From positions 29,535-93,534 of the forward strand of contig JBBCGN010000005.1 of NCBI GenBank assembly GCA_037200905.1: a stretch of 64,000 nt of DNA, given 5' to 3'. A program made the translations under genes and the position numbers. This document shows positions 24,858-48,748 of the stretch, one piece after another (within the stretch, counting starts at the first letter, position 1; the number at the start of each line of letters is the position of its first letter). The stretch comes from a bacterium (GTDB lineage Bacteria; Patescibacteriota; Minisyncoccia; Phycocordibacterales; UBA9973). A model generated the notes under the pieces. It worked only from the letters and a program-made list of their open reading frames with translations, had not been told where the DNA came from and did not search any database.

Positions 24858-24886
24858 TTGTAAAATTGATGCATCGGGAGTATACT
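24858..24886 (+). promoter_or_regulatory. promoter placing the TSS at or next to the ATG (leaderless)
   Basis: TTGTAA (24858-24863), a 17-nt spacer, then TATACT (24881-24886). The ATG at 24894 is only 7 nt after the -10 box. Confidence 0.45.
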
Positions 24887-24893
24887 AGAGGCA

Positions 24894-25520
24894 ATGATTA
24901 TCACGTATTTCGGCAAACAATTTTTCAAGGTGGCCCAGGGCGAGATGGTCATCGCTTTCAACCCTGTCAGCAAAAGCTCGAAAACGGGGCATCGCCGCGA
25001 AGTTCGGTTCCGATATCGCGCTCGTCACTACCAATCATCCTGACTACAACGGCGTCGAGCAGCTCTCGCACGGCGAGCGTGCTCCGTTCATCATCAGTCT
25101 CCCGGCGACTACGAAGTGAAAGAAATTTTCGTCAAAGGCCTGCTCGCCGAAGCCATGATCGGCGGCAAGAAATTCATCGATACTATCTATACGCTGACGG
25201 TGGACAATATCAACATCGTCTTTCTGGGCGCGCTTTCTACCGAAGACCTCGAAAAGGATGCCCGCGAGGAGATCGCCGAGCCCGATATCCTCTTCATCCC
25301 GATCGGCGGCAACGGCCTGCTCGATGCCAAGGCGGCTGCCAAGCTCGCCTCGAGCCTCGAGCCGAAGCTTGTCATACCCATGGACTACGATGCCGCTTCT
25401 CTGAAAGCCTTTCTCAAGGAGATGGGCGACGAGAAAGCCGAGACGGTGGACAAGCTCACCCTCAAGCGCAAGGATCTGGAAAACAAGGAGGGCGACGTGG
25501 TAGTATTAGCACAAGCATAG
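24894..25520 (+). CDS. metallo-beta-lactamase-fold hydrolase (UPF0173-like), 2 compensating apparent frameshifts
   Basis: MIITYFGKQFFKVAQGEMVIAFNP... then (shifted frame) ...FGSDIALVTTNHPDYNGVEQL..., and ORF 25116..25520 ends ...ILFIPIGGNGLLDAKAAAKLASSLEPKLVIPMDY. Confidence 0.65.
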
Positions 25521-25532
25521 CGCATCAATGCC

Positions 25533-25872
25533 ATGACACACCCCATCATCCACAGATTGCGAAAACATCCGGAGCACGTGCGAAGAAAGATCCTCTTCGT
25601 GGCGACCGCCGTATCGTTCGGCATCCTCTTGGTGCTCTGGGGCATCAGCGCCGGATACCGGGTGGCGGACGTGCAGACCAAGACCGCCATCAAGTCCGAC
25701 CTGAAGCGCCATCAAGTCCGACCTGAAGCCGTTCGCCATGCTCAAGGCGAGCGTCTTCGACAGCGCGGGCAAGCTGACCTGGCCGTTCGGCAAGAAAGAA
25801 ACGCCGGGCGCTATCGTGCCCGGCGATGGCGCGTCTATCGAAGCTAACGGCACGGATGCAGCGAATCAATAG
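25533..25872 (+). CDS. small membrane protein upstream of gyrA, disrupted by a 22-bp tandem duplication
   Basis: [42 protein letters not shown] contains a TM. Removing one copy of the 22-bp repeat restores a 105-codon ORF ending ...[16 protein letters not shown] at 25872. Confidence 0.55.
25686..25729 (+). repeat. perfect 22-bp tandem duplication (2 copies)
   Basis: GCCATCAAGTCCGACCTGAAGC at 25686-25707 is repeated exactly at 25708-25729. Confidence 0.95.
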
Positions 25873-25874: not shown

Positions 25875-28334
25875 ATGGCAAAAAAGATCGAACAACCAGC
25901 GGAAGAGATTCCTCACGTTAATATTCTCCCCGTCGATATCGTGGCGGAAATGAAAGAATCCTACTTGGCGTATGCCATGTCGGTTATTACTGCGCGCGCA
26001 TTGCCTGATGTCCGCGACGGCCTCAAGCCGGTCCACCGCCGCATCCTTTTTGCCATGAACGAGCTCGGCCTCGCTTCCACTGCGCGTTTCCGCAAGTCTG
26101 CGCTCGTAGTGGGCGATGTGCTCGGAAAATACCATCCGCACGGCGATACCGCAGTATACGACTCCATGGTGGGCATGGCCCAGGAATTCTCGTACCGCTA
26201 CCCGCTGGTCCTGGGCCAGGGAAACTTCGGCTCGATCGACGGCGACAATGCCGCGGCCATGCGCTATACCGAGGCCAAGATGTCAAAAATCTCTTCGGAG
26301 TTCTTGCGCGACCTCGAGAAGGAGACGGTGGATTTCCGTCCGAACTATGACCAGACCCGCAAGGAGCCGACCGTTTTTCCCACTGCGGTACCAGGACTCC
26401 TTTTGAACGGCACGCTCGGCATCGCCGTCGGTATGGCCACAAACATTCCTCCGCATAACTTGGCGGAAGTCTGCGACGCTACAAACCACCTCATCGACAA
26501 TCCTGAAGCCACCACCGAAGACTTGATGGAATTTATAAAGGGTCCTGATTTCCCGACGGGCGGTATTGCCTACGGCTACAAAGACATGTTGCATGCGTAT
26601 TCGAGCGGCCGCGGAGGCGTGGTGTGCCGTGGCGAAGCGGAAATCGTCGACAATGAAAAAGGCAATTCTCAGATCATCATCACGTCCATCCCGTACCGCG
26701 TGAACAAATCGAACCTTATCGTTTCCATCGCCGAACTGGTGCAAGAAAAAAAGCTCGAAGGCATCAAGGGCCTGCGCGACGAATCCGCCAAGGACATACG
26801 CGTGGTCATCGATCTCAAGAACGGCATCGTGCCCGAAAAAGTCCTGAACTATATCTATAAGAACACTCAGCTCGAATCCAATTTCAATTTCAATATCGTG
26901 GCTCTCGTCGACGGCGTGCCGCAGACGCTTTCCCTCAAATCCATCCTTTCCGAATTCATCTCCCATCGCAAGGAGATCGTCAGACGCCGCACCATCTATG
27001 ATCTGCGCCGTGCCGAAGAGCGCGAGCACATCCTGCTCGGACTCAAAAAAGCCCTCGACAAGATCGATCGCGTCATCACCATCATCCGCGGCTCGAAGAA
27101 CTCCGAAGCGGCAAAGGAGAACCTCATCAAGGAATTCAAATTCTCTGATCTGCAGGCGACCGCTATCCTCGAGATGCGCTTGTCCAAGCTCGCAGGCCTC
27201 GAACGCAAGGCGGTGGAAGAGGAACTGGCAGAAAAACAGAAATTCATCGCCGAAATGAAAGAATTATTGGCGAGTCCGAAGAAGATTCTTTCTACTATCT
27301 CAAGAGAGCTCAAGGAAATCCGCGAGAAATACGCCGACGAACGCAGGACAAAGATCATCAAAGGGGGAGTGAAGGAGATTTCCGACGAAGACCTCATTCC
27401 TGACAAGGAAACCGTGCTCGTGCTCACTGCAGGCGGCTACGTAAAGCGCACCGATCCGAGCGAATACCGCGCCCAGAAGCGCGGCGGCGTCGGCGTAGTG
27501 GACCTCGAGACCAAGGAAGAAGATTTCGTCACCATGCTCGTGTCCGGTTCCACTCACAGCGATCTTTTGTTCTTCACGAACCTGGGCAAGGCATACCAGA
27601 TGAAGATGTACGACATACCGGAAGGCCGCCGCGCCACCAAGGGCAAGTCCATCATGAATTTCCTCTCTCTTTCCGCTGACGAAAAAGTAAACTCCATCTT
27701 GTCCATGCCGAAAGAAGCAAAGAACAATTCCGTATCGCTGATGCTCATCACCAAGGACGGCACCGCCAAGAAGATGTCTTCGGCCTCGTTCAAGGACGTG
27801 CGCAGGAGCGGCATCATCGCCATCCGCCTCGAAAAGGGCGACAGCCTCGTCTCGGCCCTGCTCACCGACAAGAGCGATGACGTCATGCTCGCCACTTCCG
27901 GCGGCCAGTCCATCCGCTTCAAGGAGTCCGACATCCGCGAGATGGGCAGGACGGCCGGCGGCGTGCGCGGCATCAAGCTCGCCAAGGGCGACATCGTCAT
28001 GGGCGTCGACGTCATCAGGGGCGGGAAAGACGACGGCTTCTTCCTGACCATGAGCGACAACGGCTTCGGCAAGAAGACCGCTCTCAAGGAATACAAGGTC
28101 CAGAAGCGCGGCGGCTCCGGCATCAAGACCGCCAAAGTCACCGCGAAGACCGGCAAACTGATGGTGGCCAAGGTTCTCGCAGGCACGGAAGAAGAATTGA
28201 TCGCCATGTCGAAGAAGGGCCAGGTCATCCGCACCGCCCTCAAAGACATCTCCGCCCTCGGCCGCCAGACCCAAGGGGTGACCATCATGCGCCTGCGCGC
28301 CGGAGACAGCATCGCGTCACTGGCATGCGTCTAG
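25875..28334 (+). CDS. gyrA: DNA gyrase subunit A
   Basis: Intact ORF of 819 aa. Motifs present: [42 protein letters not shown], and a C-terminal beta-pinwheel repeat region. Confidence 0.97.
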
Positions 28335-28395
28335 CATTTTCCTGTGCATAAGATCCCTCGTGTTTTCCAGACGTACAAATGGTACAATAGAGGAT

Positions 28396-28924
28396 ATGTT
28401 TTCTGACCCGCTGAAAAATTTAAGAGCCTTCGGCTTGCGGGAAGATATGATTGTCGCCGATCTCGGCGCGGGGACGGGCTTTTACGCCCTCGCCGCGGCG
28501 AGCTTAGTGCCTTCGGGCAAAGTCTACGCGATCGAGATCCAGAAAGATTATCTCGCGACGATACAAAACAAGGCGAAAGAGGCGAAAGTCGCCAATCTCG
28601 AATGCATCTGGGGGCAACATCGAAAAGCCGGGCGGCACCAAGCTCGGAGATGCCGCTATCGATGCGGTCATCGCTTCCAACGTATTCTTCCAAGTCGAGA
28701 ACAAGGACCGCTTCATCGAGGAAGCCAAGCGCATCCTGAAGCCGGAAGGCAGGATCCTTTTCGTCGACTGGTCGGAGAGTTCCGCTCTCGGCCCCAAGCA
28801 GGCTGCGTTGGTGACCAAGGAGAAAGCTCGCGAACTTTTCGAGACCAAGGGCTTCGTATTCGACCGCGACATTGACGCGGGCGAGCACCATTATGGTATG
28901 ATATTCAAAAAACCGGCCATATGA
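28396..28924 (+). CDS. class I SAM-dependent methyltransferase, one apparent frameshift near 28613
   Basis: IVADLGAGTGFYALAAA is SAM motif I. After ...NLECIWG the continuation NIEKPGGTKLGDAAIDAVIASNVFFQVENKDRFIEEAKRILKPEGRILFVDW... is in another frame. Length mod 3 equals 1. Confidence 0.7.
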
Positions 28925-29001
28925 ATCCCGTTAGAGATCCATCAATCTTTATGAACCAAGCAAAACTATTACAAACTATGCAAAGTAATTTCTAACGGGA
29001 T
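28925..29001 (+). promoter_or_regulatory. 11-bp perfect inverted repeat whose right arm covers the SBP start codon
   Basis: ATCCCGTTAGA (28925-28935) pairs with TCTAACGGGAT (28991-29001); the ATG is at 29000. A 24-codon ORF (28921-28995) lies between the arms. Confidence 0.35.
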
Positions 29002-30292
29002 GAAAAAGAATAATTTCCAACTGATTATGATAGCCGTATTCATGGTCGCCGCGCTGATCGGCATGCTGGTGTTCGCCGGCAAGATCAAGATCGGCAAGGA
29101 TCCGGCCGGCTCGGGCGGCACGGTCATCCTCTGGGGGACGGCCAATGGCGGCGATCTCAGCAAGGCCATCGAGGATTTCAACCGCGATAATCCGGCCTTC
29201 ACCGTCAAGTACGTCCAGAAGAACGCCGATACCTTCGACCAGGACCTCCTGTCCGCCCTCGCTTCCGGCGTCGGGCCCGACATATTCTTCCTGCCCGACA
29301 CCCTGGCCTACAGCTACCGCAACAGGATCACCAGGGTGCCGTATACGACCTATCCGCTTTCCGCGTACAAGACGAAATTCGTCGGCGCGGGGGAAGTCTT
29401 CCTGACGTCGCAGGGCATCCTGGCGTTCCCGATGTCCGTCGATCCCATGGTCATGTACTACAACAGGAGCATGCTCGACGCGAACGGCATCGTCTATCCG
29501 CCGCAGTATTGGGACGAATTTCCCAATCTCGTGAGCATTCTCACCAAGAAGGACGACGCCAAGAAGATCATCTCGAGCGCCGTGGCTCTCGGGCAGTTTT
29601 CCAACGTCGCGCACGCCAAGGATATCCTGTCCACGCTCTTCATGCAGGCCGGCAGCCCCATCGTCACCGAACAGAACGGCCAGTTCGTCTCCGCCATGCT
29701 TGATGCTCCCGACTCCGCCCGGCTCGCCGACATCCTCAATTTCTATACGCGATTCACCGATCCCGTCAACGCGAATTATTCGTGGAACAGATCCTTGCAG
29801 GATTCGCGGAGCGCCTTCAGCGCCGAGACCCTCGCGTTCTATTTCGGCTACGCGAGCGAGCTGCCGTATCTCTTGAACAAGAATCCCAATCAGAACTTCC
29901 TGGTGGCGCCGATGCCCCAGCTCCGCAACAGCAATACCAAGATCACCGAAGGCCATGTCACCGGCCTCGCCGTCTCGGCGTTCTCGCAGAATTTCACTTC
30001 GGCTTTCACCGCCGCGAGCCTGATGTCCACCGGCGACTTCGCCGCTGCCTACGCCCAGGCCACCGGCAGCGTGCCGGTCAGGCGCGACCTGCTCGTCGGG
30101 AAGCCGAGCGACGCGTATACGCCGACGTTCTACAATTCCGCGCTCTTCGCCAAAAGCTGGCTCGATCCGGCGCCCGTCACCTCTGACGCCATATTCTCCG
30201 GCATGATCGACGCCATACTGGCCAATACCCTCAGCGCCGATCAGGCCATCAAGGATGCCGCCAACAAGCTAGCCTTCGCCCTTGCCAAATAG
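29000..30292 (+). CDS. extracellular solute-binding protein (ABC-transporter family 1, sugar-type), no cognate permease/ATPase nearby
   Basis: Intact ORF of 430 aa. It has an N-terminal TM/signal and sugar-SBP-like blocks such as ILWGTANGGDLSKAIEDFNRDNPAFTVKYVQ...DIFFLPD. This is a by-eye family call. Confidence 0.72.
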   Translation: MKKNNFQLIMIAVFMVAALIGMLVFAGKIKIGKDPAGSGGTVILWGTANGGDLSKAIEDFNRDNPAFTVKYVQKNADTFDQDLLSALASGVGPDIFFLPDTLAYSYRNRITRVPYTTYPLSAYKTKFVGAGEVFLTSQGILAFPMSVDPMVMYYNRSMLDANGIVYPPQYWDEFPNLVSILTKKDDAKKIISSAVALGQFSNVAHAKDILSTLFMQAGSPIVTEQNGQFVSAMLDAPDSARLADILNFYTRFTDPVNANYSWNRSLQDSRSAFSAETLAFYFGYASELPYLLNKNPNQNFLVAPMPQLRNSNTKITEGHVTGLAVSAFSQNFTSAFTAASLMSTGDFAAAYAQATGSVPVRRDLLVGKPSDAYTPTFYNSALFAKSWLDPAPVTSDAIFSGMIDAILANTLSADQAIKDAANKLAFALAK

Positions 30293-30296
30293 CCTT

Positions 30297-30797
30297 ATGG
30301 AACGCTATACGAAAAAATATCGCTTCGCCGCCGTCCTCATGACCATCGCTCTCGGCATGGCGTTCGCCGCGCCGGTATTCTTCGCCTACGCCCAGAATCC
30401 CAGTCCTACGACGGGAGATTCCACTGCCGGCAAGGGCCTCGTGCCCTGCGGCAAGGAAGTATACAAGGCGCAAGAGAAGATGGTCACGATCAACGGCACG
30501 CAGGTGGATGCCAAGGGCACCATCAAGGATCCCTGCACCCTGAAGACCTTGCTCGACATGGTCAACAATGTCGTGCACTTCATACTCTTCTTCATGGTGG
30601 TGCCCATCGGTGCCATCATGATGTGCTACGCGGGCTTCCTGCTCGTGACTGGCGGCGGGGAAGAGGCGAGGAAGACGAAAGCCAAAGAACTGATCTGGAA
30701 CGTGGTCTGGGGCCTGGTCATCGCCATCGCGGCCTGGCTCATCGTCGAGACCATATTGAAGCTGCTCGGCTATGACGGTTCCTATTTCGGATTTTAA
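30297..30797 (+). CDS. VirB2/TrbC-like small secreted two-TM 'pilin' paralogue 1
   Basis: Signal peptide ...APVFFAYAQ|N, a Cys pair (LVPCG...DPC), then two TM helices separated by the charged loop GGGEEARKTKAKE. The ATG at 30297 is preferred because the ORF-track start is a TTG. Confidence 0.7.
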   Translation: MERYTKKYRFAAVLMTIALGMAFAAPVFFAYAQNPSPTTGDSTAGKGLVPCGKEVYKAQEKMVTINGTQVDAKGTIKDPCTLKTLLDMVNNVVHFILFFMVVPIGAIMMCYAGFLLVTGGGEEARKTKAKELIWNVVWGLVIAIAAWLIVETILKLLGYDGSYFGF

Positions 30798-30822
30798 CAA
30801 TCTAACGTATAATTAAGAAGCC

Positions 30823-31245
30823 ATGAAGCATATCAAAACCAAAGGACTGATCGCTCTCGCCATCCTCTATGTCGCCCTCCTGTTCCCGTTCGCCGCCCTG
30901 GCGCAGAATCCGTCGCCGGCTCCGAGCGACTGCAATCCGTGCCCTTCGTCCGGCGCCACACCCTCCTCGCAGACATCCTCGAGCGCCGGCAGGATCTGCA
31001 ATCCCATCAATTGCGACCTGCCCGCCTATATCAAGACGATCCTGACCGGCGTCATCAAGATCGGCATACCGGTCATAACGCTTGCCATCATCTACTGCGG
31101 CTTCCTCTTCGTCAGCGCTCGCGGCAACGAGAAAGAGCTTCAGGTCGCCAAGCGCGCCCTCATGTACACCCTCATCGGCGCGGCAGTATTGCTCGGCTCC
31201 TGGGCTTTGGCGCAGCTCATCTCCGATACCGTGCTCGCGCTCTGA
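30823..31245 (+). CDS. VirB2/TrbC-like 'pilin' paralogue 2
   Basis: Signal peptide ...FAALAQ|N, a Cys-rich segment (CNPCP...CNPINC), and two TM helices with the loop SARGNEKELQVAKRA. Confidence 0.7.
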   Translation: MKHIKTKGLIALAILYVALLFPFAALAQNPSPAPSDCNPCPSSGATPSSQTSSSAGRICNPINCDLPAYIKTILTGVIKIGIPVITLAIIYCGFLFVSARGNEKELQVAKRALMYTLIGAAVLLGSWALAQLISDTVLAL

Positions 31246-31269
31246 TCCTTATCATTACTCATAAGCTCT

Positions 31270-31821
31270 ATGAAACACATATTAAAAAATAAATTCATAC
31301 GAATACCTGTAGCTCTCTGCATGGGCCTCGCCGTCTTCTTCGCGGGCGTAGCCATACCTCTGCATGTGACGTTTGCGCAAGGTTCATGCACCAATCCTAT
31401 CGATACCAATGAAAGCGATTGCATCTCGAACGGCGCGCAATGGATACCCGCAGGCGGAGGCGGGTGCAGGAGGCGGAGGAGGTGGCGGCGTGACCGTCAC
31501 GCAGTCCCACCGGCAGCTGCAGCACCCTCAAGGCCAATCCCAAGCCTCCAGGACCTGATCTGCTACGTCGTGGACAGCCTCATCGCCGGCGTGGTGCCGC
31601 TCATCTTCGCCCTCGCCATCGTCATGTTCGTCTGGGGCGTGGTGCGCTACGTCATCGGCGCGGACGACGAGAAGGAGAGGGAGCGAGGCAAGCAGTTCAT
31701 GATCTGGGGCATCATCGCCCTCGCGGTCATGGTGAGCGTCTGGGGCCTGGTGCATCTCGTCACCAATACCTTCGGATTGTCTACCGGCGGCCAGACCTAT
31801 ATTCCACAGGTCAGGCAGTAA
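31270..31821 (+). CDS. VirB2/TrbC-like 'pilin' paralogue 3 (GGN low-complexity insert)
   Basis: Signal peptide ...HVTFAQ|G with Cys residues. The two-TM core reads FALAIVMFVWGVVRYVIGADDEKERERGKQFMIWGIIALAVMVSVWGLVHLVTNTFGL. Confidence 0.7.
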   Translation: MKHILKNKFIRIPVALCMGLAVFFAGVAIPLHVTFAQGSCTNPIDTNESDCISNGAQWIPAGGGGCRRRRRWRRDRHAVPPAAAAPSRPIPSLQDLICYVVDSLIAGVVPLIFALAIVMFVWGVVRYVIGADDEKERERGKQFMIWGIIALAVMVSVWGLVHLVTNTFGLSTGGQTYIPQVRQ

Positions 31822-31940
31822 ACGGCTCTTGCATTCGTTCCGGCTGTGGTATAATTGTCGGGAGAAGTATTATTAATATTATAGGTCGTATCGTCATTAT
31901 CAGTTTATTAGTTGTCCCGCCTCCGGCGGGACGGGAATTT

Positions 31941-32360
31941 ATGAAAAACACATTAGTTAAGTTGTCTGGTTTCGCAGCTGGTTTGGGAACCGCGGTCGCT
32001 ATTCCGTTGTTGGCGTTCGCTCAGGGCGTAGGCACTCAGTCGGGCAGCATCGCGCCGACTAAGTGCAATAGCGGTACTATTACCGACATTCAGAGCTTCG
32101 TTTGTAAGCTTAACGAGATCTTGAGCGCGCTGTTGCCGTTCTTGGTTACCCTCGGCATCATCTACTTCGTCTGGGGCGTCGTTTCCTATGTCATCGCTGA
32201 CGACGAAGAGGCGAAGAAGAAGGGCCGCGATCGCATGATCTACGGCATCATCGGCTTGGTTGTCATCGTCGGTGTCTGGGGCCTGGTATCATGGGTTACC
32301 ACTACCTTCGGCTTGAACAACAACACCACGCAGATCATATATCCGACCGTACCGTATTAA
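31941..32360 (+). CDS. VirB2/TrbC-like 'pilin' paralogue 4
   Basis: Signal peptide ...LLAFAQ|G and a Cys pair. The core reads TLGIIYFVWGVVSYVIADDEEAKKKGRDRMIYGIIGLVVIVGVWGLVSWVTTTFGL. Confidence 0.72.
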   Translation: MKNTLVKLSGFAAGLGTAVAIPLLAFAQGVGTQSGSIAPTKCNSGTITDIQSFVCKLNEILSALLPFLVTLGIIYFVWGVVSYVIADDEEAKKKGRDRMIYGIIGLVVIVGVWGLVSWVTTTFGLNNNTTQIIYPTVPY

Positions 32361-32378
32361 TTCCTAAGACTGTACGCA

Positions 32379-32723
32379 ATGGATCTCTTATTCCCGAACG
32401 TAGCGCATGCTGAGACTGTGGACCAGTTCATAGCCAACGTCGATAGGCTCATCATCAATCCGCTTATCGTGCTCTTGTTCGCCTTGGCTGTCATCTACTT
32501 CCTCTGGGGCATGTTCATGTTCTTGGCCAACGCCGACAACGAAGAGAAGCGTTCTGTGGGCAAACTGCACATGATCTACGGGGTTATCGGCATGACGATC
32601 ATGGTAGGAGTGTTCGCAATCATGCACGTGGTTCTCGATACCCTCAGCATCGACGGCATCAATCCCGAACAAGGTTCCGTGCAATTGGATGATTACAACC
32701 CGTCCTATCCGCCCGCTCCATAG
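32379..32723 (+). CDS. VirB2/TrbC-like 'pilin' paralogue 5 (short pre-sequence)
   Basis: MDLLFPNVAHAE|T..., with the core LFALAVIYFLWGMFMFLANADNEEKRSVGKLHMIYGVIGMTIMVGVFAIMHVVLDTL. Confidence 0.65.
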   Translation: MDLLFPNVAHAETVDQFIANVDRLIINPLIVLLFALAVIYFLWGMFMFLANADNEEKRSVGKLHMIYGVIGMTIMVGVFAIMHVVLDTLSIDGINPEQGSVQLDDYNPSYPPAP

Positions 32724-32826
32724 CCCGCGTACGAACAGGGAATGCGAGAGAAACAAAAAAGCCATCACTATATCATAGTGATGGCTTTGCGTTTGCGCGG
32801 ATTATCGGGCGCAAGCGCGATGTTTC

Positions 32827-33603
32827 TTAAGGAACTAATTGCCATTTGATGTACGACTTGTCATCCACGGCATAATACTCGTAGGCCTCTCCTCCGGGAT
32901 ACCGGAAGAAGGCGTACCATTTCTTGGCCCAGTCCTTGTCGTTCGGCGTGATGTCGTACAGGACATTGCTCCGGTCTTTGACCAGCACGTACGTGCCCCT
33001 GCCTGTCGGCGCGGGGATTTCCGTATGCCTGCCGTCGATCCAGAGGGTCACCGGCTTCTCGGCCGTGGCCATGCCTTCTCCGCTTTTCGGATACAGGGAG
33101 TCGCGCCGGGCCTGGGCTTCTCTTCTCGGCTTGCTGATGGAATCAGCAAGCCGTGCGGCCTCGCGCTGTTGCGCTTTGACTATGGCGTCCACCTGCTCTT
33201 TAGCTCCTTTGTTCTGCAATTCCAGATGGTAGACGAATAGCATCGCTACTATCAATGCCAGAAGAAAGGCATTGTCCGTCTGGCCGAAAACTACGGCAAG
33301 AAGGATGCAGATGATGATCGCAATGTTCGACAAGATGAAGAAATCAAGAGAACCCCACCACGCTTCCCATGCGTTGGGAGCGACGGATCGTATCATCAGC
33401 ACGATCAGGGCGTACCCGATCAGGCAGAGCGCCAGGATCAGGATTTTCTTTCCCGTGAAGAGCACTGCTGTTCCGGTTTTCCGGAGAATTCCCGCAAGCG
33501 CGGCTCCGGCTTTTCCGGGCGCGCTGCTCTTTCTTCTGCCTGAGCGTTTCGTGCCATAAAGGATGAACGCCACAAGGATCAGTATGATCATAATGTTAAG
33601 CAT
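32827..33603 (-). CDS. hypothetical polytopic membrane protein with C-terminal soluble domain
   Basis: Part of ORF 32827..33645. The ATG at 33603 is preceded by GGAGG with 6-nt spacing and overlaps the stop of the upstream gene by 8 nt. Confidence 0.55.
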   Translation of the reverse strand: MLNIMIILILVAFILYGTKRSGRRKSSAPGKAGAALAGILRKTGTAVLFTGKKILILALCLIGYALIVLMIRSVAPNAWEAWWGSLDFFILSNIAIIICILLAVVFGQTDNAFLLALIVAMLFVYHLELQNKGAKEQVDAIVKAQQREAARLADSISKPRREAQARRDSLYPKSGEGMATAEKPVTLWIDGRHTEIPAPTGRGTYVLVKDRSNVLYDITPNDKDWAKKWYAFFRYPGGEAYEYYAVDDKSYIKWQLVP

Positions 33604-35008
33604 GAGTTGCCTCCTTTTTTGTATGCTCCGTGATCGCGTCTGCAACCATCAGAGACAGTTTTTTGAACAATTCTTCGTTTGCTTGAGTGAATGATGCGCC
33701 GTCGCTCATGCGGCTGGTCAAGTACGTGTGCTTGCCGTACTCGTAGGCTTTGATTTCCGCGTCTATCAGTGCGATAGTCTTGGCATCGATGCCTGCGTTG
33801 GCAGCGACGTCGAGCTTGGCTTTCAACGCTTCAGCATTGGCTACGCCCTTGCTCTTGATCGCAGCAGCTTCTCCTTGTCCGACTTTCGTCAGGTCTACAA
33901 GCTTGCCTTCTGCGAATTCTTTCATCTTGAGAGCGTCGCCTGTGCCTTCCAGCGCTTTCTTCTGCGCCGTGAAGCCTTCTGTTACGACGGCATTCACTGC
34001 GGCATGCACTGAAGGCGGACCCCCGAGAGATTTGACTCTGGCATCGATGACTTTCAATCCGAGGCCGTAGACCGGCTCATCATCGTCGTCAGTCAAACGG
34101 GCAATATCTTCGATTGCATTTTCTAATTTCTGGTCGAGCCATTTGGAAGTCTGCAAATGAAGGATTTGAGCATAGGTATACTTCTTGAATTCGGTGTTCA
34201 CCATGCTCTGGGCGGCATTTGTCAGCTGCTTGCCCGCTTCGATGAACCGTTCATGGGGATCATTGCCCCTGGCATTGCGCCGATAGAGGAAATAGTCATC
34301 TATTACCACGATGATGGGCATGTTCGGCGTGAGCGTCACCTGCTTGCTGTTCACATCGCTTTCCATGTTCTCTCTAAACGCTTGCTTCTGCGCGTCAGTC
34401 ACTACATCGTCCGGGTATGGAAATGTGGACCAATGCGCTTGCGCGAGTGTCGGAGTCGCCGTAGTGATTTCTGAGAAGCGATATTTGCCTTCGCTCGCCC
34501 ATGACTTGAGAAGGTCTTCTTTATTGCCTTCTTCGATATCCCTGTGGCCTTTCTTCAACTCCTTCTCGACTTCTTCGTTGCTGATGCCTTTTATCTCATA
34601 TCTGCGGCGTGAAAGCGAATCAGTCTCGATGCGCACGAATCCGGGGAAGGCGAAGTACAAAGTGCCTCCTTTCAGATTGTTCAGAAGGGGAATTGCTCCT
34701 CCGAACATCGGTAGTCCGTATGCGCCGCCGATTTCTTCGGGCTGGAGCGTACGGGCAGAAATCTTGAATGCCAGGAATGGCCAGAGGACGAATGCGATCA
34801 GCCAAGGGTTGATCGCGATACCTGTCGTAATGTGCGTGACGGGATCGACGGTAGTCGTTTTTATCGGGAAGATAATCCATCCGAGGATGATTATGATCCA
34901 GAAGAGCGATGCTCCAAAGATGTTCAAGAACCAGTAGAGGAACGGTCGTTCCTTGATAGGCCGCACGGCGCTTGCCGGTGCCAGCCTCCTTCTCCTATAC
35001 GTTGCCAT
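33596..35008 (-). CDS. membrane protein with divergent SPFH/band-7-like C-terminal half
   Basis: Intact ORF of 470 aa with an N-terminal TM pair. The tail GLGLKVIDARVKSLGGPPSVHAAVNAVV...AQKKALEGTGDA...GQGEAAAIKSKGVANAEALKAKL resembles the SPFH/flotillin Ala/Glu-rich region. This is a by-eye call. Confidence 0.5.
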   Translation of the reverse strand: MATYRRRRLAPASAVRPIKERPFLYWFLNIFGASLFWIIIILGWIIFPIKTTTVDPVTHITTGIAINPWLIAFVLWPFLAFKISARTLQPEEIGGAYGLPMFGGAIPLLNNLKGGTLYFAFPGFVRIETDSLSRRRYEIKGISNEEVEKELKKGHRDIEEGNKEDLLKSWASEGKYRFSEITTATPTLAQAHWSTFPYPDDVVTDAQKQAFRENMESDVNSKQVTLTPNMPIIVVIDDYFLYRRNARGNDPHERFIEAGKQLTNAAQSMVNTEFKKYTYAQILHLQTSKWLDQKLENAIEDIARLTDDDDEPVYGLGLKVIDARVKSLGGPPSVHAAVNAVVTEGFTAQKKALEGTGDALKMKEFAEGKLVDLTKVGQGEAAAIKSKGVANAEALKAKLDVAANAGIDAKTIALIDAEIKAYEYGKHTYLTSRMSDGASFTQANEELFKKLSLMVADAITEHTKKEATHA

Positions 35009-35209: not shown

Positions 35210-36076
35210 TTATTCGTGCTCCGAATGTTCCGCGTGAGCGTGAGGATCTGCCACTTCTTCGCCTTCCTTCTTTTCCTCCTCTTCCTTCTTCTGGAGATAG
35301 TATTTCCTCCAGAGGATGACGCCGAGCAGGATCACGATGGCGAGGAAGAGCCATGCCAGGAAGCCCCACGGGAAGAAGCCGCTCGAAGCGTTCGCCGGCT
35401 GGTTTTTCACCGTTGTCGTCGAAGTATTGGTAGTATTGGTAGCAGTGGTGGTCGTGCCTGAGCCGTCCGCGTTGCTGGCAGCTATCGTGCCGTCAGGATT
35501 GGTGATGACATCGGCATTGCCTATGACCGGGGTGCCGTTGGTGACATTGAACGTCGTGACGTTCGAGATGCCTCCCGGGCTCGGCGTAAAGACGGTGATA
35601 GGATAGCTGCCGATAGCGGCCATATCAGCGTCGTTCAGAGTTACAGAGAGCTGCGTGCCGCTGACGAAAGTGGTCGTCCTGTCTGCGCCGTTGTAGCGCA
35701 CGATAGAAGCAGGCACGAAGTTCGCGCCGATGACGTTGAGGGAGATCTTGCTCGAGCCCATGGCGATGGCGCCGGGAGTAATCTTGTAGACTACCGGAGC
35801 CGCACCGTTTACGGAGCCGTAAGCATTTGCGCCGTTCGTGCCGTTTGAACCATCAGCGCCATTGGTACCATTTGAACCGTTCGTGCCGTAATAATTCTGA
35901 TTTGAAGTACCGCCGTTGTTCATACCGTTTGAAGGGGTCGAATTGCCGTAATATTGGATGTTGACCGTGCCGGCATTTTGCGCCAAAGCGCTGTTTGGAA
36001 AGGCGAGGGAAAGAGCACCGAGGGCCAAAAGGACCGAAGCGCTGACAATTATTGTGTTTTTCTTAATTGTATCCAT
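35210..36076 (-). CDS. cell-surface protein with G-x-N/collagen-like triplets, IPT/TIG-like domain and C-terminal TM anchor
   Basis: MDTIKKNTIIVSASVLLALGALSLAFPNSALAQ is the signal peptide. GTNGSNGTNGADGSNGTNGAN is a triplet repeat. PVVYKITPGAIAMGSSKISLNVIGANFVP...VRYNG...QLSVTL looks IPT/TIG-like. The C-terminus has a TM and an E/K/H-rich tail. Confidence 0.65.
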   Translation of the reverse strand: MDTIKKNTIIVSASVLLALGALSLAFPNSALAQNAGTVNIQYYGNSTPSNGMNNGGTSNQNYYGTNGSNGTNGADGSNGTNGANAYGSVNGAAPVVYKITPGAIAMGSSKISLNVIGANFVPASIVRYNGADRTTTFVSGTQLSVTLNDADMAAIGSYPITVFTPSPGGISNVTTFNVTNGTPVIGNADVITNPDGTIAASNADGSGTTTTATNTTNTSTTTVKNQPANASSGFFPWGFLAWLFLAIVILLGVILWRKYYLQKKEEEEKKEGEEVADPHAHAEHSEHE

Positions 36077-36084
36077 ATATTTAT

Positions 36085-36113
36085 AGTATAGCATAAAGAA
36101 GCTAAAAAGTCAA
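36085..36113 (-). promoter_or_regulatory. sigma70-type promoter; ATG 8 nt after the -10 box (leaderless)
   Basis: The minus strand reads TTGACT (36113-36108), a 17-nt spacer ending in TGC, then TATACT (36090-36085). The start codon begins at 36076. Confidence 0.55.
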
Positions 36114-37207: not shown

Positions 37208-37211
37208 TTTG

Positions 37212-37293
37212 TGCTGGAGGAGGGACTCGAACCCTCAAGCCTTGCGGCACTAGTTCCTAAGACTAGCGCGTATACCAATTCCGCCACTCCAGC
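37212..37293 (-). tRNA. tRNA-Leu (anticodon TAG)
   Basis: The minus strand reads GCTGGAG-TG-GCGGAATTGGTATACGCG-CTAGT-CTTAGGA-ACTAG-long variable arm-GAGGG-TTCGAGT-CCCTC-CTCCAGC-A. The cloverleaf was folded by hand. Confidence 0.9.
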
Positions 37294-37344: not shown

Positions 37345-38865
37345 ATGAATCTTCAATCCGGGGCGAAGGCGGCGAGTCCGAAGGCTATCTACTATGACGG
37401 AACCTGCCCCATGTGCACGGTGCTCATGGATAAGATCGGCAGTTCGAAAGCGGGAGAGAGCTTTGATATGAAAGATGCCACGAGCGAGCCTCTGCCGCGT
37501 GCGATATCGAAGGAAGCCGTCGAGCGGGGAATCCATGTCGTCGATGCTGACGGAACGGTCCATAAGAATTCCCAGGCCATTCTCTCGATCATGGCGGAAT
37601 ATCCGCGCTGGAAATTCCTTGCCAGGATCGGCAAGCTGCCGGTCATCCGCCAAGCGCTCGAGGCGGGGTATCGGCTGATTTCATTGCACAGGCATTTCCT
37701 GTTCGGCAGGGCGAGCCGCATCTTCTGGCTCAAAGTCGTGGTAGCGGCCGGACTCTGCGCCGGACTTATTTCCTCGTTCAGGCTGTGGGCCGGCGCGCGG
37801 TCATTTCCTCTGGTGCCCGCGTTCCGGTTCTTGCCGGCTCTGCCTCCTGCCGCAGCGACGATCCTCTTCGGATTGCTTCTTGCTCTCTTGCTTGCCGTGA
37901 TCTTCGTGCCGAGGCCGCGGAAGCTGATCATCTGCATCTCCGCTATCGCGCTAATTTTTGCCGTCGGCGACCAGATGCGCTGGCAGCCGTGGTTCTATCA
38001 ATATGCATTCATGCTCGGATCACTGGCATTCTTTTCCTGGAATCCTGGAGACGAGCAAGGCGGCCGGAAGGCGCTCAATACGAACAGGCTGATCATCGGC
38101 AGCATTTATTTCTTCAGCGGGCTGCAGAAGGTGAACGTCGCCTTCATGGGCAGCATCTTTCCGTGGCTCATCGCCCCGGTCGCGAAATTCTTTCCGGCGC
38201 AGGCCGCGCCGGTGCTGTACGCGTTCGGCATCCTGGTGCCCTTCATGGAGATGGCCATCGGCATCGGCCTCTTCAGCAAGAAGTTCCGCACGTATGCCGT
38301 CATCGGCGCGCTCCTGATGCACGGTTTCATCCTCTTTTCCATCGGCCCGTTCGGCCACGACTGGAACAGCGTCGTCTGGCCATGGAACATCGCCATGATG
38401 CTCCTGGTGCTCATCCTGTTCTACAAGGCCCGGGATTTCTCTTTCCGGGATCTTGTCTGGATCAGGCGCTTTCCGTATCAGAAGGCGGTGCTGGTCCTGT
38501 TCGCCGTCATGCCGATAGCCAGCTTTTTCAATATGTGGGATTCATATCTGTCTTCGACGCTATACTCGGGAAACACCAACAGCGCGAGACTCTCCGTGAG
38601 CGATAGTGTGGCAGAGAAGCTGCCGGCAGGAGCGAGACAATATCTCGCTGAGAGCAGGAGCGGAGGAAAAATATTGGATTTCTCCACCTGGTCCTTCGCC
38701 GAGCTGAACGTGCCTCCGTATCCCGAGACCAGAATATTCAAAGCTGTCGGCAGATACGCCTGCCGCTATGCCGATGCTCCTTCCGACGTTCTTCTCGATA
38801 TATACGGAAAGCCGACGATGTTCAATCGCGGTTGGCCCACGACGTATACGTGTAGAGATTTGTAG
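37345..38865 (+). CDS. DCC1-like thiol-disulfide oxidoreductase (DUF393) domain fused to a large polytopic membrane domain
   Basis: Intact ORF of 506 aa. The N-terminus IYYDGTCPMCTVLMDKI... is the DUF393/DCC motif. About 8-9 hydrophobic helices follow. Confidence 0.65.
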   Translation: MNLQSGAKAASPKAIYYDGTCPMCTVLMDKIGSSKAGESFDMKDATSEPLPRAISKEAVERGIHVVDADGTVHKNSQAILSIMAEYPRWKFLARIGKLPVIRQALEAGYRLISLHRHFLFGRASRIFWLKVVVAAGLCAGLISSFRLWAGARSFPLVPAFRFLPALPPAAATILFGLLLALLLAVIFVPRPRKLIICISAIALIFAVGDQMRWQPWFYQYAFMLGSLAFFSWNPGDEQGGRKALNTNRLIIGSIYFFSGLQKVNVAFMGSIFPWLIAPVAKFFPAQAAPVLYAFGILVPFMEMAIGIGLFSKKFRTYAVIGALLMHGFILFSIGPFGHDWNSVVWPWNIAMMLLVLILFYKARDFSFRDLVWIRRFPYQKAVLVLFAVMPIASFFNMWDSYLSSTLYSGNTNSARLSVSDSVAEKLPAGARQYLAESRSGGKILDFSTWSFAELNVPPYPETRIFKAVGRYACRYADAPSDVLLDIYGKPTMFNRGWPTTYTCRDL

Positions 38866-38968
38866 AGAGTTATTGCGTATGGTCACAAGTATTTTTCTGC
38901 TGAAAAATCTCGCGACCCCGCCTCGGCACCGTCGTGCCTGCGGCTCGCACAAAACATCCCATGTTTTG

Positions 38969-39041
38969 TGCGCCCTGAAGGGATCGAACCTTCGACCTTA
39001 TCCTTAAGAGGGATCTGCTCTACCAGCTGAGCTAAGGGCGC
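38969..39041 (-). tRNA. tRNA-Lys (anticodon CTT)
   Basis: The minus strand reads GCGCCCT-TA-GCTCAGCTGGTAGAGC-A-GATCC-CTCTTAA-GGATA-AGGTC-GAAGG-TTCGATC-CCTTC-AGGGCGC-A. Confidence 0.88.
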
Positions 39042-39069
39042 ATGATTGTATTTTTAAATTTCCTGCCGG

Positions 39070-39151
39070 TGCCCGAGGTGGGGGTCGAACCCACATCCCT
39101 TGCGAGACACGATTTTAAGTCGTGCGCGTATACCAGTTCCGCCACTCGGGC
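39070..39151 (-). tRNA. tRNA-Leu (anticodon TAA)
   Basis: The minus strand reads GCCCGAG-TG-GCGGAACTGGTATACGCG-CACGA-CTTAAAA-TCGTG-long variable arm-GTGGG-TTCGACC-CCCAC-CTCGGGC-A. Confidence 0.9.
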
Positions 39152-39200
39152 ATTATCTTAACATTTTTCCTAAAATATTTCCAATCCCTTTCTTTTAGGG

Positions 39201-39272
39201 AGGCCTGGGGCGGAATTGAACCGCCGCATATTCCTTTTGCAGAGGAACGCCTTACCACTTGGCTACCAGGCC
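39201..39272 (-). tRNA. tRNA-Cys (anticodon GCA)
   Basis: The minus strand reads GGCCTGG-TA-GCCAAGTGGTAAGGC-G-TTCCT-CTGCAAA-AGGAA-TATGC-GGCGG-TTCAATT-CCGCC-CCAGGCC-T. The discriminator is U, as expected for Cys. Confidence 0.9.
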
Positions 39273-41705: not shown

Positions 41706-42959
41706 ATGGCTAAATCAAATGCCTCCGCGCCGAAAAATCCTAGAAAAATCTATCTCGATCATGCTTCGGCGACGCCAGTAGACCCTGGCGCGGCGCGCAT
41801 CATGCACCGGGTGTCGGAGGCTTTTTTCGCGAATCCGAGCGCCATCCATGAGGACGGCGTAGCGGTAAAAAATGCTCTGGCCGCGGTCCGTGCCGCCGTA
41901 GCCGAACCGCTCGGAGCGCACAGCGATGAAATTATTTTCACCAGCGGCGCCACGGAGAGCAATAATCTGGCAATAACTGGAATTGTAAATGCTTCACAAG
42001 ATGAAAATTTTTTCAGGGGCTCGGCCAGACCGTTCAAAAATTCTCATTTTGTTCCGCATATCATCACGACAAACATCGAACATGCGTCCGTGCTCGAAGC
42101 CTGCAAATATTTGGAAAAGACAAAACAAGCCCAGGTGACGTATGTACCGGTTGAGCCGAACGGCATCGTCGATGCGAAGAAAATAAAAAAAGCTCTGAAG
42201 AAGAATACCGTGCTCGTTTCGGTGATGTACGCCAATAACGAGATCGGCACTATCCAGCCGCTTCGTGAGATTGCCAAGGAGATTCGCCATTTCCGCAAAG
42301 ATAGCAAGAATTCCGCTTTGCCGTATTTCCATACCGATGCTACCCAAGCGACGAATTATTTATCCATGAATGCAGAAAAGCTCGGCGTCGATCTCTTGTC
42401 TTTCAATGCCGCAAAGATCTACGGCCCGAAAGGCATAGGGGCGCTTTGGAAAAAAAGAAGCATTTCGCTCGCCCCGATCATGCATGGCGGCGATCAGGAA
42501 TACGGATTGCGCTCCGGTACCGAGAATATCGTTGCTGTTTCCGGTTTTGCCGAAGCTCTGGCTGTAGCGGAAGATATGAAAGTCAAAGAAGTAAAACGGC
42601 TCACGGTACTGCGGGATTATTTCATAAAAAAATTGCAGGCTCTCGATAAAAGAATCATTTTGAATGGCGATGCGGAAAGCCGCTTGCCGAACAATGTGAA
42701 TATCACTAGTGCGAATATGCCGAGCGATCTGTTGATCATCGAGCTTTCGGCTCGCGGCATCATGGCGAGCGCGAAGAGCGCCTGCAAATCCGGCGACGGC
42801 AAAGCATCGCATGTCATAGCTGCCATCCGTCCCGATGCCAGAGAGCTCGACGGCTCATTGCGCTTTACTCTCGGCAGAGGAACGACAAAGGCCGATATCG
42901 ACCACACTGCCAAGGCTCTCGAGCAGATTTTGAACAAACTGAAGAAGTGGTATAATTAG
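41706..42959 (+). CDS. cysteine desulfurase (NifS/IscS class V aminotransferase)
   Basis: An in-frame ATG at 41706 within ORF 41112..42959. Motifs present: IYLDHASATP, FTSGATESNN, HIITTNIEHASV, and SFNAAKIYGPKG (PLP lysine region). 417 aa. Confidence 0.9.
   Translation: MAKSNASAPKNPRKIYLDHASATPVDPGAARIMHRVSEAFFANPSAIHEDGVAVKNALAAVRAAVAEPLGAHSDEIIFTSGATESNNLAITGIVNASQDENFFRGSARPFKNSHFVPHIITTNIEHASVLEACKYLEKTKQAQVTYVPVEPNGIVDAKKIKKALKKNTVLVSVMYANNEIGTIQPLREIAKEIRHFRKDSKNSALPYFHTDATQATNYLSMNAEKLGVDLLSFNAAKIYGPKGIGALWKKRSISLAPIMHGGDQEYGLRSGTENIVAVSGFAEALAVAEDMKVKEVKRLTVLRDYFIKKLQALDKRIILNGDAESRLPNNVNITSANMPSDLLIIELSARGIMASAKSACKSGDGKASHVIAAIRPDARELDGSLRFTLGRGTTKADIDHTAKALEQILNKLKKWYN
42001..42047 (+). 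repeat. short palindromic element inside the cysteine desulfurase ORF (related to 56545..56647)
   Basis: ATGAAAATTTTT (42001-42012) pairs with AAAAATTCTCAT (42036-42047) at 11 of 12 positions. They flank TCAGGGGCTCGGCCAGACCGTTC. The 25-nt stretch 42016-42040 is identical to 56603-56627. Confidence 0.75.
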
Positions 42960-42977
42960 TCCTAAGCAATTTGTACT

Positions 42978-43142
42978 ATGATGACCGAAGAAGAAAAAGC
43001 GAAAAAGATAAAAGAGATTTACGATGAAGCCGTTGCGAAACTGGATACTCTTGCAAGAAAGCGCAGCGAGATCGTCAAAGACTATATCAAAGAACTTGAG
43101 AACAAGAAGATAGAGGCGCTTAGGAGCAATTTAGGATTATAA
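42978..43142 (+). CDS. small coiled-coil protein (54 aa)
   Basis: Below the ORF-track cut-off. Translation is MMTEEEKAKKIKEIYDEAVAKLDTLARKRSEIVKDYIKELENKKIEALRSNLGL*. It is tightly spaced between its neighbours. Confidence 0.35.
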   Translation: MMTEEEKAKKIKEIYDEAVAKLDTLARKRSEIVKDYIKELENKKIEALRSNLGL

Positions 43143-43160
43143 ATTAATTAACATATCCCT

Positions 43161-43718
43161 ATGGAAAATGAGAAAGATTTGCTGAAGAAAGATTTGAGCA
43201 CGCTTGAGAAGAAAGAAGACATAGAGAAATTCATTGAAGATACGGAAATTATGGGAGGGCATGAGGATATCGTGGCTTCTGCGAAGGAAAAAATTTCCCA
43301 GCTCGAAGTAAAAGCGTCCGGCATTGAAACTACTCCCGCACGGGCAGCCCAAGTCGAGAACCTGGGCGGCAATACTGAAATTGTTGCGGAAAAAACGAAA
43401 GAAGTTGACGCAGAAATAGCAAACGTCAAAGCGGATGCTGAAAAGCAAATAGCAGAGATTGAAATTCAAAATTTAAAGAAAGAGGTCAGCAGGGAAAAAA
43501 TCGTACCGGGAGCCGTGTTTGATTGCAGGATGTCTAACGGCGCGATCCTCGAAGTGAGGGTGGAAAGCAAAATACAGAAGACTGCAGAAGCTATTCCTCG
43601 AGAATATGTCAGAATTCAGGCAACGCGAGGGGATTTGAATACCGATGTCACGCTGGATCAGTTGATCGAGAAAGAACCGGAACCGGAACAGAAAGAGGAA
43701 GAGAAAAAGCCCGAATAA
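43161..43718 (+). CDS. hypothetical acidic coiled-coil protein
   Basis: ORF of 185 aa, E/K-rich. No family was recognised. Confidence 0.5.
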   Translation: MENEKDLLKKDLSTLEKKEDIEKFIEDTEIMGGHEDIVASAKEKISQLEVKASGIETTPARAAQVENLGGNTEIVAEKTKEVDAEIANVKADAEKQIAEIEIQNLKKEVSREKIVPGAVFDCRMSNGAILEVRVESKIQKTAEAIPREYVRIQATRGDLNTDVTLDQLIEKEPEPEQKEEEKKPE

Positions 43719-43789
43719 GAAAAGAAAGAGGATAAAGAAAATCCCGATAAGCTTGCTGAAGAAGAAGCCAAAGAACAATAAAGCCATAC

Positions 43790-48495: not shown

Positions 48496-48545
48496 TTTTA
48501 ACTGGTTTTATTCGTGAGTATTTAGGTTTAAAGAACTATGGGTAT

Positions 48546-48725: not shown

Positions 48726-48748
48726 CAAAAAACGCCCTTGCGGGCGCC
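48726..48748 (-). terminator. terminator hairpin just downstream of tRNA-Leu(CAG)
   Basis: The minus strand reads GGCGCCC-GCAA-GGGCG followed by TTTTTTGC. Confidence 0.55.

Follow-up and report, generated by a model that had tools for sequence, protein, structure and literature searches.

The window examined here (64,000 nucleotides of contig JBBCGN010000005.1, assembly GCA_037200905.1) carries on its forward strand a gene for a solute-binding protein (SBP), preceded by a methyltransferase gene and followed by five tandem genes of small pilin-like proteins, designated P1–P5. The locus is best explained as a chromosomal, clade-conserved operon of a Nomurabacteria-like member of the Paceibacteria (Patescibacteria), situated away from the core genes of the type IV secretion system (T4SS), and the five small proteins are best explained as ancient, non-interchangeable, VirB2/TrbC-like paralogues of the T4SS_pilin family of Patescibacteria. 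The gene order is methyltransferase, SBP, P1, P2 and P3, followed by P4 and P5, apparently under a separate promoter. The locus comprises the following features:

28380–28388, plus strand: extended −10 box TGgTACAAT, promoter-like, read from the sequence, 7 nt 5′ of the methyltransferase ATG
28396–28924, plus strand: gene of a class-I S-adenosylmethionine-dependent methyltransferase of ~175 aa, first gene of the conserved block, frameshifted at the G-run 28610–28614
29000–30292, plus strand: SBP gene, 430 aa, family-1 solute-binding protein with an N-terminal membrane anchor (helix 3–25) and an oligosaccharide-SBP fold
30297–30797, plus strand: pilin paralogue P1, 166 aa, signal peptide AYA|Q, two conserved Cys, hairpin of two transmembrane (2-TM) helices
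30823–31245, plus strand: pilin paralogue P2, 140 aa, signal peptide ALA|Q, four Cys, 2-TM hairpin
31270–31821, plus strand: pilin paralogue P3, 183 aa, signal peptide TFA|Q, Cys-containing linker, 2-TM hairpin
31847–31855, plus strand: internal extended −10 box TGgTATAAT, promoter-like, in the P3–P4 spacer, 85 nt 5′ of the P4 ATG
31914–31932, plus strand: G+C-rich hairpin GTCCCGCC-TCC-GGCGGGAC in the P4 5′ leader, read from the sequence
31941–32360, plus strand: pilin paralogue P4, 139 aa, signal peptide AFA|Q, Cys pair C42/C55, 2-TM hairpin
32379–32723, plus strand: pilin paralogue P5, 114 aa, no signal peptide, 11-residue leader MDLLFPNVAHA, no Cys, 2-TM hairpin
32758–32788, strand unassigned: 14-bp hairpin, probable terminator found by a scan for terminator-like sites, with the T-run on the minus strand

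The spacers SBP–P1, P1–P2, P2–P3, P3–P4 and P4–P5 were 4, 25, 24, 119 and 18 nt in the window, and the 14-bp hairpin separates the last pilin gene from the convergent gene on the minus strand. A preliminary description of this DNA had listed five same-strand open reading frames (ORFs) after the SBP gene, and their coordinates and lengths were confirmed exactly. The methyltransferase as the first gene, the five-way positional orthology, the absence of a signal peptide in P5, the two promoter-like boxes and the frameshifts are additions to that description.

The products of the array were compared with family profiles by means of hidden Markov models (HMMs). The scores of P1–P5 against PF18895 (T4SS_pilin; gathering score 26.6 bits) were 28.9, 27.7, 43.1, 43.9 and 23.0 bits, respectively; P1–P4 thus exceeded the gathering score, and P5, the only one below it, was assigned to the family by profile–profile comparison (hhalign probability of the P5 group versus the P4 group 99.4%). 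The P4 group versus the P2 group gave an hhalign probability of 97.4%, and the paralogue groups are, judging from these profiles, mutually homologous; their agreement with the family is far above what chance would give. In two relatives, Nomurabacteria GWE1_32_28 (locus L031, GCA_000989515.1) and RAAC4_OD1_1 (locus L077, GCA_000505065.1), all ten array pilins exceeded the PF18895 threshold, including the P5 orthologues (31.7 and 37.6 bits, respectively). With the TrbC/VirB2 profile PF04956 (gathering score 27.9 bits), P2, the most TrbC-like member of the array, scored 27.5 bits (E = 3.7 × 10−6) and P1 16.7 bits, P3, P4 and P5 of the window had no match, and the P2 orthologue of L031 cleared the threshold at 30.1 bits. 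The best NCBIfam match of all five proteins was NF045849, a Mycoplasma pilin-like conjugal transfer protein of integrative and conjugative elements (ICE) (21.8–39.5 bits, below the 40-bit cutoff), and P4 is named 'pilin' by NCBI. Consequently, the earlier assignment of the five proteins to VirB2/TrbC-like T4SS pilins is supported, the HMM match being T4SS_pilin and the TrbC/VirB2 match borderline, and the sequence block that P3–P5 had been said to share is real.

The identification of the five proteins as holins or as other membrane proteins of phages or mobile elements, to which their small size and two TM helices would lend themselves and for which the P4 of one relative gave a sub-threshold match with Phage_holin_4_1 (16.8 bits versus a gathering score of 22.2 bits), is effectively refuted. 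Neither a PHROGs holin match for these proteins nor a Pfam holin in the window was found, and there was no phage or plasmid match in a tblastn search of P2 against 72,556 plasmids and a blastn search of the locus against phages. Moreover, the chromosomal context is of a housekeeping type (gyrA, infB, clpB), and signal peptides are not a feature of holins.

According to hydropathy, P1–P4 contain three hydrophobic segments, namely, the signal peptide and two helices, and P5 contains two; in each of the five proteins, the two C-terminal hydrophobic helices are separated by a loop rich in K, R, E and D. The signal peptides, called from hydropathy and from reading of the sequence, are evident in P1–P4 as an n-region, an h-region and a site of the AxA|Q type, with the variant TFA|Q in P3. 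The architecture proposed earlier for all five proteins therefore holds for the two TM helices with a charged loop, whereas the signal peptide and the Cys-containing segment are absent from P5.

The SBP matched PF01547 (SBP_bac_1) at 60.3 bits, and its AlphaFold2 (AF2) model (predicted local distance difference test, pLDDT, 88.2; predicted template modelling score, pTM, 0.83) has a membrane helix at the N-terminus, connected by a short linker to a bilobed fold. The top Foldseek matches of this model were cyclo/maltodextrin-, beta-glycoside-, trehalose/maltose- and sucrose/maltotriose-binding proteins (E ~ 10−21, TM-score ~0.7, identity 15–21%). Many aromatic residues were invariant in the alignment of 52 SBP sequences and would fit sugar binding. 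In total, 2195 SBP homologues were found with E ≤ 0.001, of which the best 120, excluding the window's own 100% entry, were ~56–68% identical and mostly covered 93–100% of the query; where the source of these 120 was named, the labels were Nomurabacteria, Paceibacterota, Pacebacteria, Minisyncoccia, Patescibacteria group or 'bacterium'. No Pfam match with permease or ABC (ATP-binding cassette) transporter families was found among the 49 principal ORFs of the window, which bears out for this stretch the earlier remark that the SBP has no permease or ATPase partner, and the gene tables of loci L001–L005 contained no cognate permease or ATPase beside the SBP gene (within 10 kb in L002–L005).

The methyltransferase matched the Pfam models Methyltransf_31, Methyltransf_11 and Methyltransf_25, that is, generic class-I models only, with no specific NCBIfam family. 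A tblastn search with an orthologue revealed two high-scoring segment pairs in two frames (67–68% identity). Since the gene is frameshifted at the five-G run 28610–28614, it was missed by the public annotation, in which a spurious antisense ORF of 186 aa (28331–28891) is given instead. In 78 of 79 loci, the methyltransferase gene was found directly 5′ of the SBP gene, most commonly with a 4-nt overlap, and a −10-like hexamer ended 6–8 nt 5′ of its ATG in 51 of 62 related loci. This placement of the −10 box suggests a leaderless transcript that would start at the methyltransferase gene and not at gyrA. It should be noted that a conserved −10 box so near the start codon points to leaderless mRNAs in this clade of Patescibacteria (loci L002–L085). 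The gene gyrA itself was rejected as a member of the block, as locus L063 is without gyrA and the conserved promoter separates gyrA from the methyltransferase gene.

The P3–P4 gap was the sole long spacer of the array, with a median of 119 nt compared with 12–19 nt at the other pilin spacers. An exact TATAAT was present in this gap in 35 of 45 loci (12 expected from shuffled sequences) and TGnTATAAT in 31 of 45, while the generic two-hexamer sigma-70 score was 8.7 versus 8.6 in shuffles, only the extended −10 being enriched. A putative second promoter that would drive P4 and P5 is inferred. The folding energy of the gap in the window was −33.6 kcal/mol (z = −2.05); the hairpin of the P4 leader was dropped as a candidate regulatory element, because folding was not conserved across loci (median z = −0.35). 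At gathering thresholds, Rfam gave tRNAs only and no match in the P3–P4 spacer.

The linkage of the SBP and pilin genes was assessed in two directions. The forward sample consisted of 80 SBP-bearing loci from species-representative genomes, which were searched with an HMM iterated from the five pilins of the window; the reverse sample consisted of 80 metagenome loci fetched with the P5 profile. Among the 73 forward loci with more than 3.5 kb downstream, a few of which duplicate one genome, the SBP gene was directly followed by five pilin genes in 49 and by six in 18, the exceptions being interrupted or degraded arrays. In the reverse sample, the SBP gene stood directly before a chain of 4–6 pilin genes in all 37 loci with at least 5 kb upstream. 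The SBP–P1 spacer was a few nucleotides across loci, and the gene tables of three relatives showed gyrA, methyltransferase, SBP and five T4SS_pilin genes in the same order. The block was intact in L063, although rpsB–tsf replaces gyrA there, and in L002, although an insertion with isochorismatase and transposase genes parts gyrA from the methyltransferase gene there. Thus, the synteny check that the preliminary description had called for revealed that the linkage is kept in essentially every relative sampled, and none of the outcomes that this description had named as refuting was obtained.

The main alternative explanation of this linkage is inherited synteny without functional coupling, in which the SBP would serve an ordinary ABC importer for sugar encoded elsewhere, the methyltransferase would have a housekeeping role, and both would be co-transcribed with the pilin genes in a compact, rarely rearranged genome. 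It agrees with the standard family-1 oligosaccharide-binding fold of the SBP, with the generic matches of the methyltransferase, with the synteny of the whole gyrA…infB region in the clade and with the fairly close relationship of the sampled genomes, whose identity to the window was 63–86% for GyrA (median 83%), compared with a median of 56% for the SBP and 43–53% for the pilins. Nevertheless, we consider it somewhat unlikely: the partner permease and ATPase are missing from the 64-kb window and from the 10-kb surroundings in L002–L005, the linkage is complete in both sampling directions, the block outlasts changes of its upstream and downstream neighbours, and the overlapping or abutting ORFs together with the conserved promoter before the methyltransferase gene define one transcription unit.

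Comparison of the five pilin positions across 48 non-redundant five-gene loci revealed that the best cross-genome match of a pilin was the pilin of the same position in 48 of 48 cases at all five positions, and the top-10 matches agreed at 100%. Orthologues were 45–54% identical, whereas paralogues within a locus were 23–46% identical and formed the subgroups P3/P4/P5 and P1/P2. Judging from this comparison, the five pilins are a fixed set of strict positional orthologues and not a variable one. A variable array for antigenic or host-range variation, such as has been proposed for Patescibacteria arrays and for the virB2 paralogues of Bartonella and Anaplasma, is accordingly very unlikely. This interpretation was put forward in PMC12102498 and is in line with the mutual identity of P1–P5 in the window, just 17–28% (MAFFT alignment), and with the outer segments of P1 and P5, which differ greatly in length between genomes. 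It is contradicted by the core domains already, through the positional orthology, and the nearly constant copy number (5–6) and the retention of position-specific traits (such as the leader of P5 and the paired Cys of P4) also speak against it; together, these three observations point to old, fixed, non-redundant roles and not to turnover. The strict positional orthology thus argues against the 'variation' explanation, at least in the sampled clade, and points to a heteromeric structure with divided labour.

The five positions also differ in their individual properties. In relatives, the protein at the P1 position often has fibronectin type III (FN3)-like repeats N-terminal to the pilin domain; it was lengthened to 334–737 aa in 18 loci, and the long forms scanned matched fn3/Pur_ac_phosph_N. 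The P3 position is occupied by single- or double-domain proteins in relatives. Position-3 genes of 220–278 aa (e.g., L004:12009–12788) often encode two fused T4SS_pilin domains, and the extra gene of the six-gene loci is of the same P3-like type as these two-domain fusions. In the P3 linker of the window (~31440–31545), the open frame reads 'GGGGCRRRRRWRRDRH', a frame different from that of the orthologues, whereas frame +2 gives TGSCSTLKANPK, the motif found before LQDL in the orthologues, and frame +1 a Gly-rich stretch; the alignment with P3 orthologues begins only at 31540. The arginine-rich linker of P3 is therefore probably a frameshift artefact, and the pattern of frames suggests up to three single-base indels in this G+C-rich stretch.

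In P4, the Cys pair C42/C55 was invariant, and the mean column identity was 66% (41-sequence alignment). The AF2 model of P4 (pLDDT 66.6) comprises the signal-peptide helix and a hairpin of helices 50–85 and 89–122. The putative second promoter before P4 and P5 suggests P4 as a candidate major or abundant subunit. The N-terminus of P5 is MDLLFPNVAHA|E, and its ORF is closed upstream by the in-frame TAA of P4. The leader M-D-L-F-x-x-N-x-A-Y-A is kept in most of 37 P5 orthologues, so that the short leader is a real feature and not a truncation. Only two hydrophobic segments were present in 44 of 48 P5 orthologues. Some P5 orthologues carry long C-terminal extensions (L070:13299–15569, L083:13026–14243, L075:13300–14361 and L073), in which a repeated Cys/Trp-rich unit (CWH…YYxWxDxR…C) had no Pfam match. 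The N-terminal extensions of P1 and the C-terminal extensions of P5 would fit a topology with both ends extracellular.

Arrays of VirB2-like pilin genes are already known in Patescibacteria, as the preliminary description had correctly stated for the Candidate Phyla Radiation (PMC12102498; bioRxiv 10.1101/258137; PMC12857230). Patescibacteria possess a T4SS of the monoderm type, and their arrays of 2–11 VirB2-like pilin genes have been described in 383 assemblies, with a mean identity of 25% (PMC12102498). The five adjacent genes of the window correspond to the array definition of this census (at least two PF18895/VirB2-like genes of low mutual identity, in tandem or with one gene between them). 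The pilin array within the T4SS locus of S. epibionticum, the single species tested so far, is essential (PMC10633639, PMC12857230), and the role of the T4SS and of the pilin arrays in Patescibacteria has openly been called unknown (PMC11665869). It had been noted earlier that the window has no VirB4, VirB6, VirD4 or prepilin peptidase gene, and no Pfam match with a T4SS component or prepilin peptidase was found among the 49 principal ORFs, except for a sub-threshold T2SSE match in ClpB (18.1 versus 24.9 bits). VirB4 is recorded in six of seven related assemblies checked (PMC12102498, Table S1). The core cluster of GWE1_32_28 consists of VirB2, VirB4, TrsD and VirB3, with one pilin of its own, and that of RAAC4_OD1_1 consists of VirB2, VirB4, TrsD and VirB3 plus VirB6, likewise with one pilin of its own (PMC12102498, Table S3). 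The SBP-linked five of these two genomes are not listed as VirB2 in Table S3, although all ten exceed the PF18895 threshold; the census thus under-reports pilin loci far from virB4. Consequently, besides a T4SS core that includes a pilin, the clade possesses a separate five-pilin operon, and the missing VirB4 and VirB6 genes at the locus are explained by the T4SS core that relatives carry elsewhere in the genome. No paper that ties an SBP to pilin arrays was found in the searchable literature, which is incomplete; arrays as such have been published, whereas the context of the five-pilin array, headed by SBP and methyltransferase genes, appears new.

Instead of being filament subunits, the five 2-TM proteins could also remain in the membrane as parts of a channel, either as PrgF/Mbov_0395-like small components of a monoderm T4SS or, with the SBP, as an unconventional SBP-dependent uptake system. 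The best NCBIfam match of all five, below the cutoff as it is, belongs to the Mycoplasma ICE family; the census labels gene 287 of RAAC4_OD1_1, by its number near the SBP locus, PrgF (it may be one of the SBP-linked five); monoderm conjugation systems are generally without pili (PMC12102498, PMC12857230); and five hairpins would provide ten helices beside an orphan SBP. On the other hand, no similarity to a transporter family above noise was found, the block is without an energising ATPase, and the signal peptides, the extracellular Cys pairs and the FN3-bearing or otherwise extended outer ends better suit surface-exposed subunits. A channel of this kind is therefore judged improbable.

Family membership, operon anatomy, positional orthology and linkage are matters of observation, and from this point we infer pilus assembly, VirB4 dependence, the roles of the subunits and whatever the SBP or the methyltransferase may contribute. 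We give about even chances to a heteromeric VirB2-like surface structure, which would be made with a distant VirB4 machine and beside which the SBP would act. P1–P4 would be exported by Sec and cleaved after the AxA site, and P5 would be inserted without a cleavable signal peptide; all five would then be membrane-embedded helical hairpins, with both termini outside and the K/R-rich loop in the cytoplasm. A VirB4-type machine encoded elsewhere would draw the five pilins into one heteromeric pilus or envelope-spanning conduit, in which the abundant subunit would be P4, possibly together with P5, and P1, with its FN3-like repeats on the outside in relatives, would be an adhesin-like minor subunit. 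The membrane-tethered, oligosaccharide-type SBP, presumably produced from the same transcript, would most likely work beside this structure, either by binding to a glycan on the host surface or by capturing a sugar where the cells are in contact.

Several observations weigh against this scheme. T4SS genes were found neither in the window nor within 10 kb in relatives, and the relatives already have a virB4-adjacent pilin, so the SBP-linked five may not use the VirB4 machine. The alignment of 27 Agrobacterium VirB2 sequences gave hhalign probabilities of 0.9% with the P2 group and 1.6% with the P4 group, the profiles being shallow (Neff, the effective number of sequences, 1.9–3.0). The P4, P2 and P5 group profiles recovered none of the solved T4SS pilins among PDB sequences, yielding nothing or chance transmembrane matches (G-protein-coupled receptors and designed channels). 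A Foldseek search of the PDB with the P4 model yielded just generic helical hairpins and no match at E ≤ 0.001, and the helical hairpin is a non-discriminating fold. The mature proteins are ~100–150 aa long, compared with ~70–80 aa for classical pilins. Since homology with Agrobacterium VirB2 was not detected and no solved pilin was recovered, the label 'pilin' rests on PF18895, on the borderline-to-passing TrbC score of the P2 group, on topology and on the association of other family members with virB4 in the literature. Furthermore, all sampled loci belong to one clade, in which the neighbourhood from gyrA to infB is also syntenic, and because of this conserved adjacency alone is weak, at most moderate, evidence of a functional link; the transcription signals of the operon and the persistence of the block despite local rearrangements add to it.

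The proposed heteromeric structure was compared with known systems. The locus shares PF18895 with the Patescibacteria VirB2-like arrays (the T4SS locus of S. epibionticum ML1 and the 'Sec-secreted array' of N. lyticus TM7x; PMC12102498), as well as the tandem same-strand arrangement of 2–11 small signal-peptide proteins of ~25% identity in monoderm ultrasmall hosts. It differs from them in that the array lies outside the T4SS cluster and is headed by methyltransferase and SBP genes, and in its fixed five, sometimes six, members with strict positional orthology, one of which is without a signal peptide. With VirB2/TrbC/TraA (PF04956), the likeness extends to the signal peptide, which is long and cleavable, to the pair of hydrophobic helices joined by a basic loop and to the membrane topology, predicted as N-out/C-out, whereas the mature proteins of the window are longer, have Cys-containing N-terminal segments, are encoded without neighbouring VirB genes and belong to a monoderm envelope. 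GspG–K of type II secretion and ComGC–GG of Gram-positive competence pili offer an analogy, namely, a tandem fixed set of five paralogous small subunits, each forming its own orthologous group; however, a type IV pilin fold and a prepilin peptidase are involved there, and a 2-TM hairpin and signal peptidase I here, so that family and machine are unrelated. The Mbov_0395/MMCAP2_0565 family (NF045849) likewise comprises small 2-TM proteins, which belong to the T4SS of wall-less or monoderm cells, but the Mycoplasma proteins are ~80 aa long, single-copy and encoded inside an ICE. Two SBPs have functions tied to a T4SS: PrgZ of pCF10 is a pheromone-capturing, family-5 peptide binder, and ChvE of Agrobacterium is a sugar-sensing SBP, encoded with a transporter, that acts via VirA, that is, through a two-component sensor. 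The SBP of the window resembles them as an SBP without its own adjacent transporter, and ChvE also in its predicted sugar binding; unlike them, it has no sensor or regulator in its block. To our knowledge, co-operonic linkage to pilin genes is a feature of neither PrgZ nor ChvE.

A more far-reaching proposal, which we regard as speculative and hold to be of low probability, is that the methyltransferase, the anchored SBP and the five VirB2-like subunits would form a dedicated device of episymbiotic Paceibacteria for both host contact and uptake, namely, a heteromeric pilus or conduit with a co-expressed SBP selecting or capturing a host-derived glycan. If true, this would tie the T4SS pilins of Patescibacteria to nutrient acquisition and not to the export of DNA or effectors. 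The fixed five-pilin operon and the soluble, easily expressed sugar-binding protein provide a concrete experimental handle, namely, the SBP ligand, possible contacts of the SBP with the pilins, and a possible filament.

Downstream of the array lies a convergent pair of genes on the minus strand (32827–35008) encoding a 272-aa multi-pass membrane protein and a 470-aa SPFH/Band-7-like protein. This pair was excluded as a member of the module, as it was present in only 14–16 of 54 loci (iterated HMMs); a similar membrane/Band-7-like pair was found inside the pilin cluster of L078. Also on the minus strand, 35210–36094 encodes a surface protein that combines choice-of-anchor-Z repeats (85 bits) with a membrane anchor at the C-terminus; homologues of this protein occur downstream of the array in 43 related loci. 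The gene at 37345–38865 (plus strand) has a product of 506 aa that carries a DCC1-like thiol-disulfide oxidoreductase domain at its N-terminus; conserved Cys pairs occur in the exported proteins of the nearby locus.

According to Pfam, the 49 principal ORFs of the window are of a chromosomal housekeeping character (gyrA, infB, clpB, a transpeptidase of the penicillin-binding protein 2 type, alaS, typA, mnmA and glycosyltransferases), and the iterated pilin HMM detected no further pilin genes in the window. The ORF 10989–11456 matches MscL over only the first 35 model positions, and the Lactamase_B_3 gene before gyrA (24866–25726) is shorter than in relatives; both show signs of indel errors or of being pseudogenes. 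Given the frameshifts in the methyltransferase gene and P3 and these other truncated-looking genes, indel errors in the contig are likely. Islands of low G+C content (0.41–0.47 versus ~0.55 elsewhere) were observed at 2001–4000, 42001–44000 and 48001–50000 and may be foreign DNA; one of them encodes (47680–48495) a product whose N-terminus resembles that of lipoproteins and which matched no family. Six tRNA genes, namely, Leu-TAG, Lys-CTT, Leu-TAA, Cys-GCA, Leu-CAG and Tyr-GTA, were identified (37211–37293, 38968–39272, 48760–48844 and, on the minus strand, 50249–50332), three of which are clustered beside rbfA–infB.

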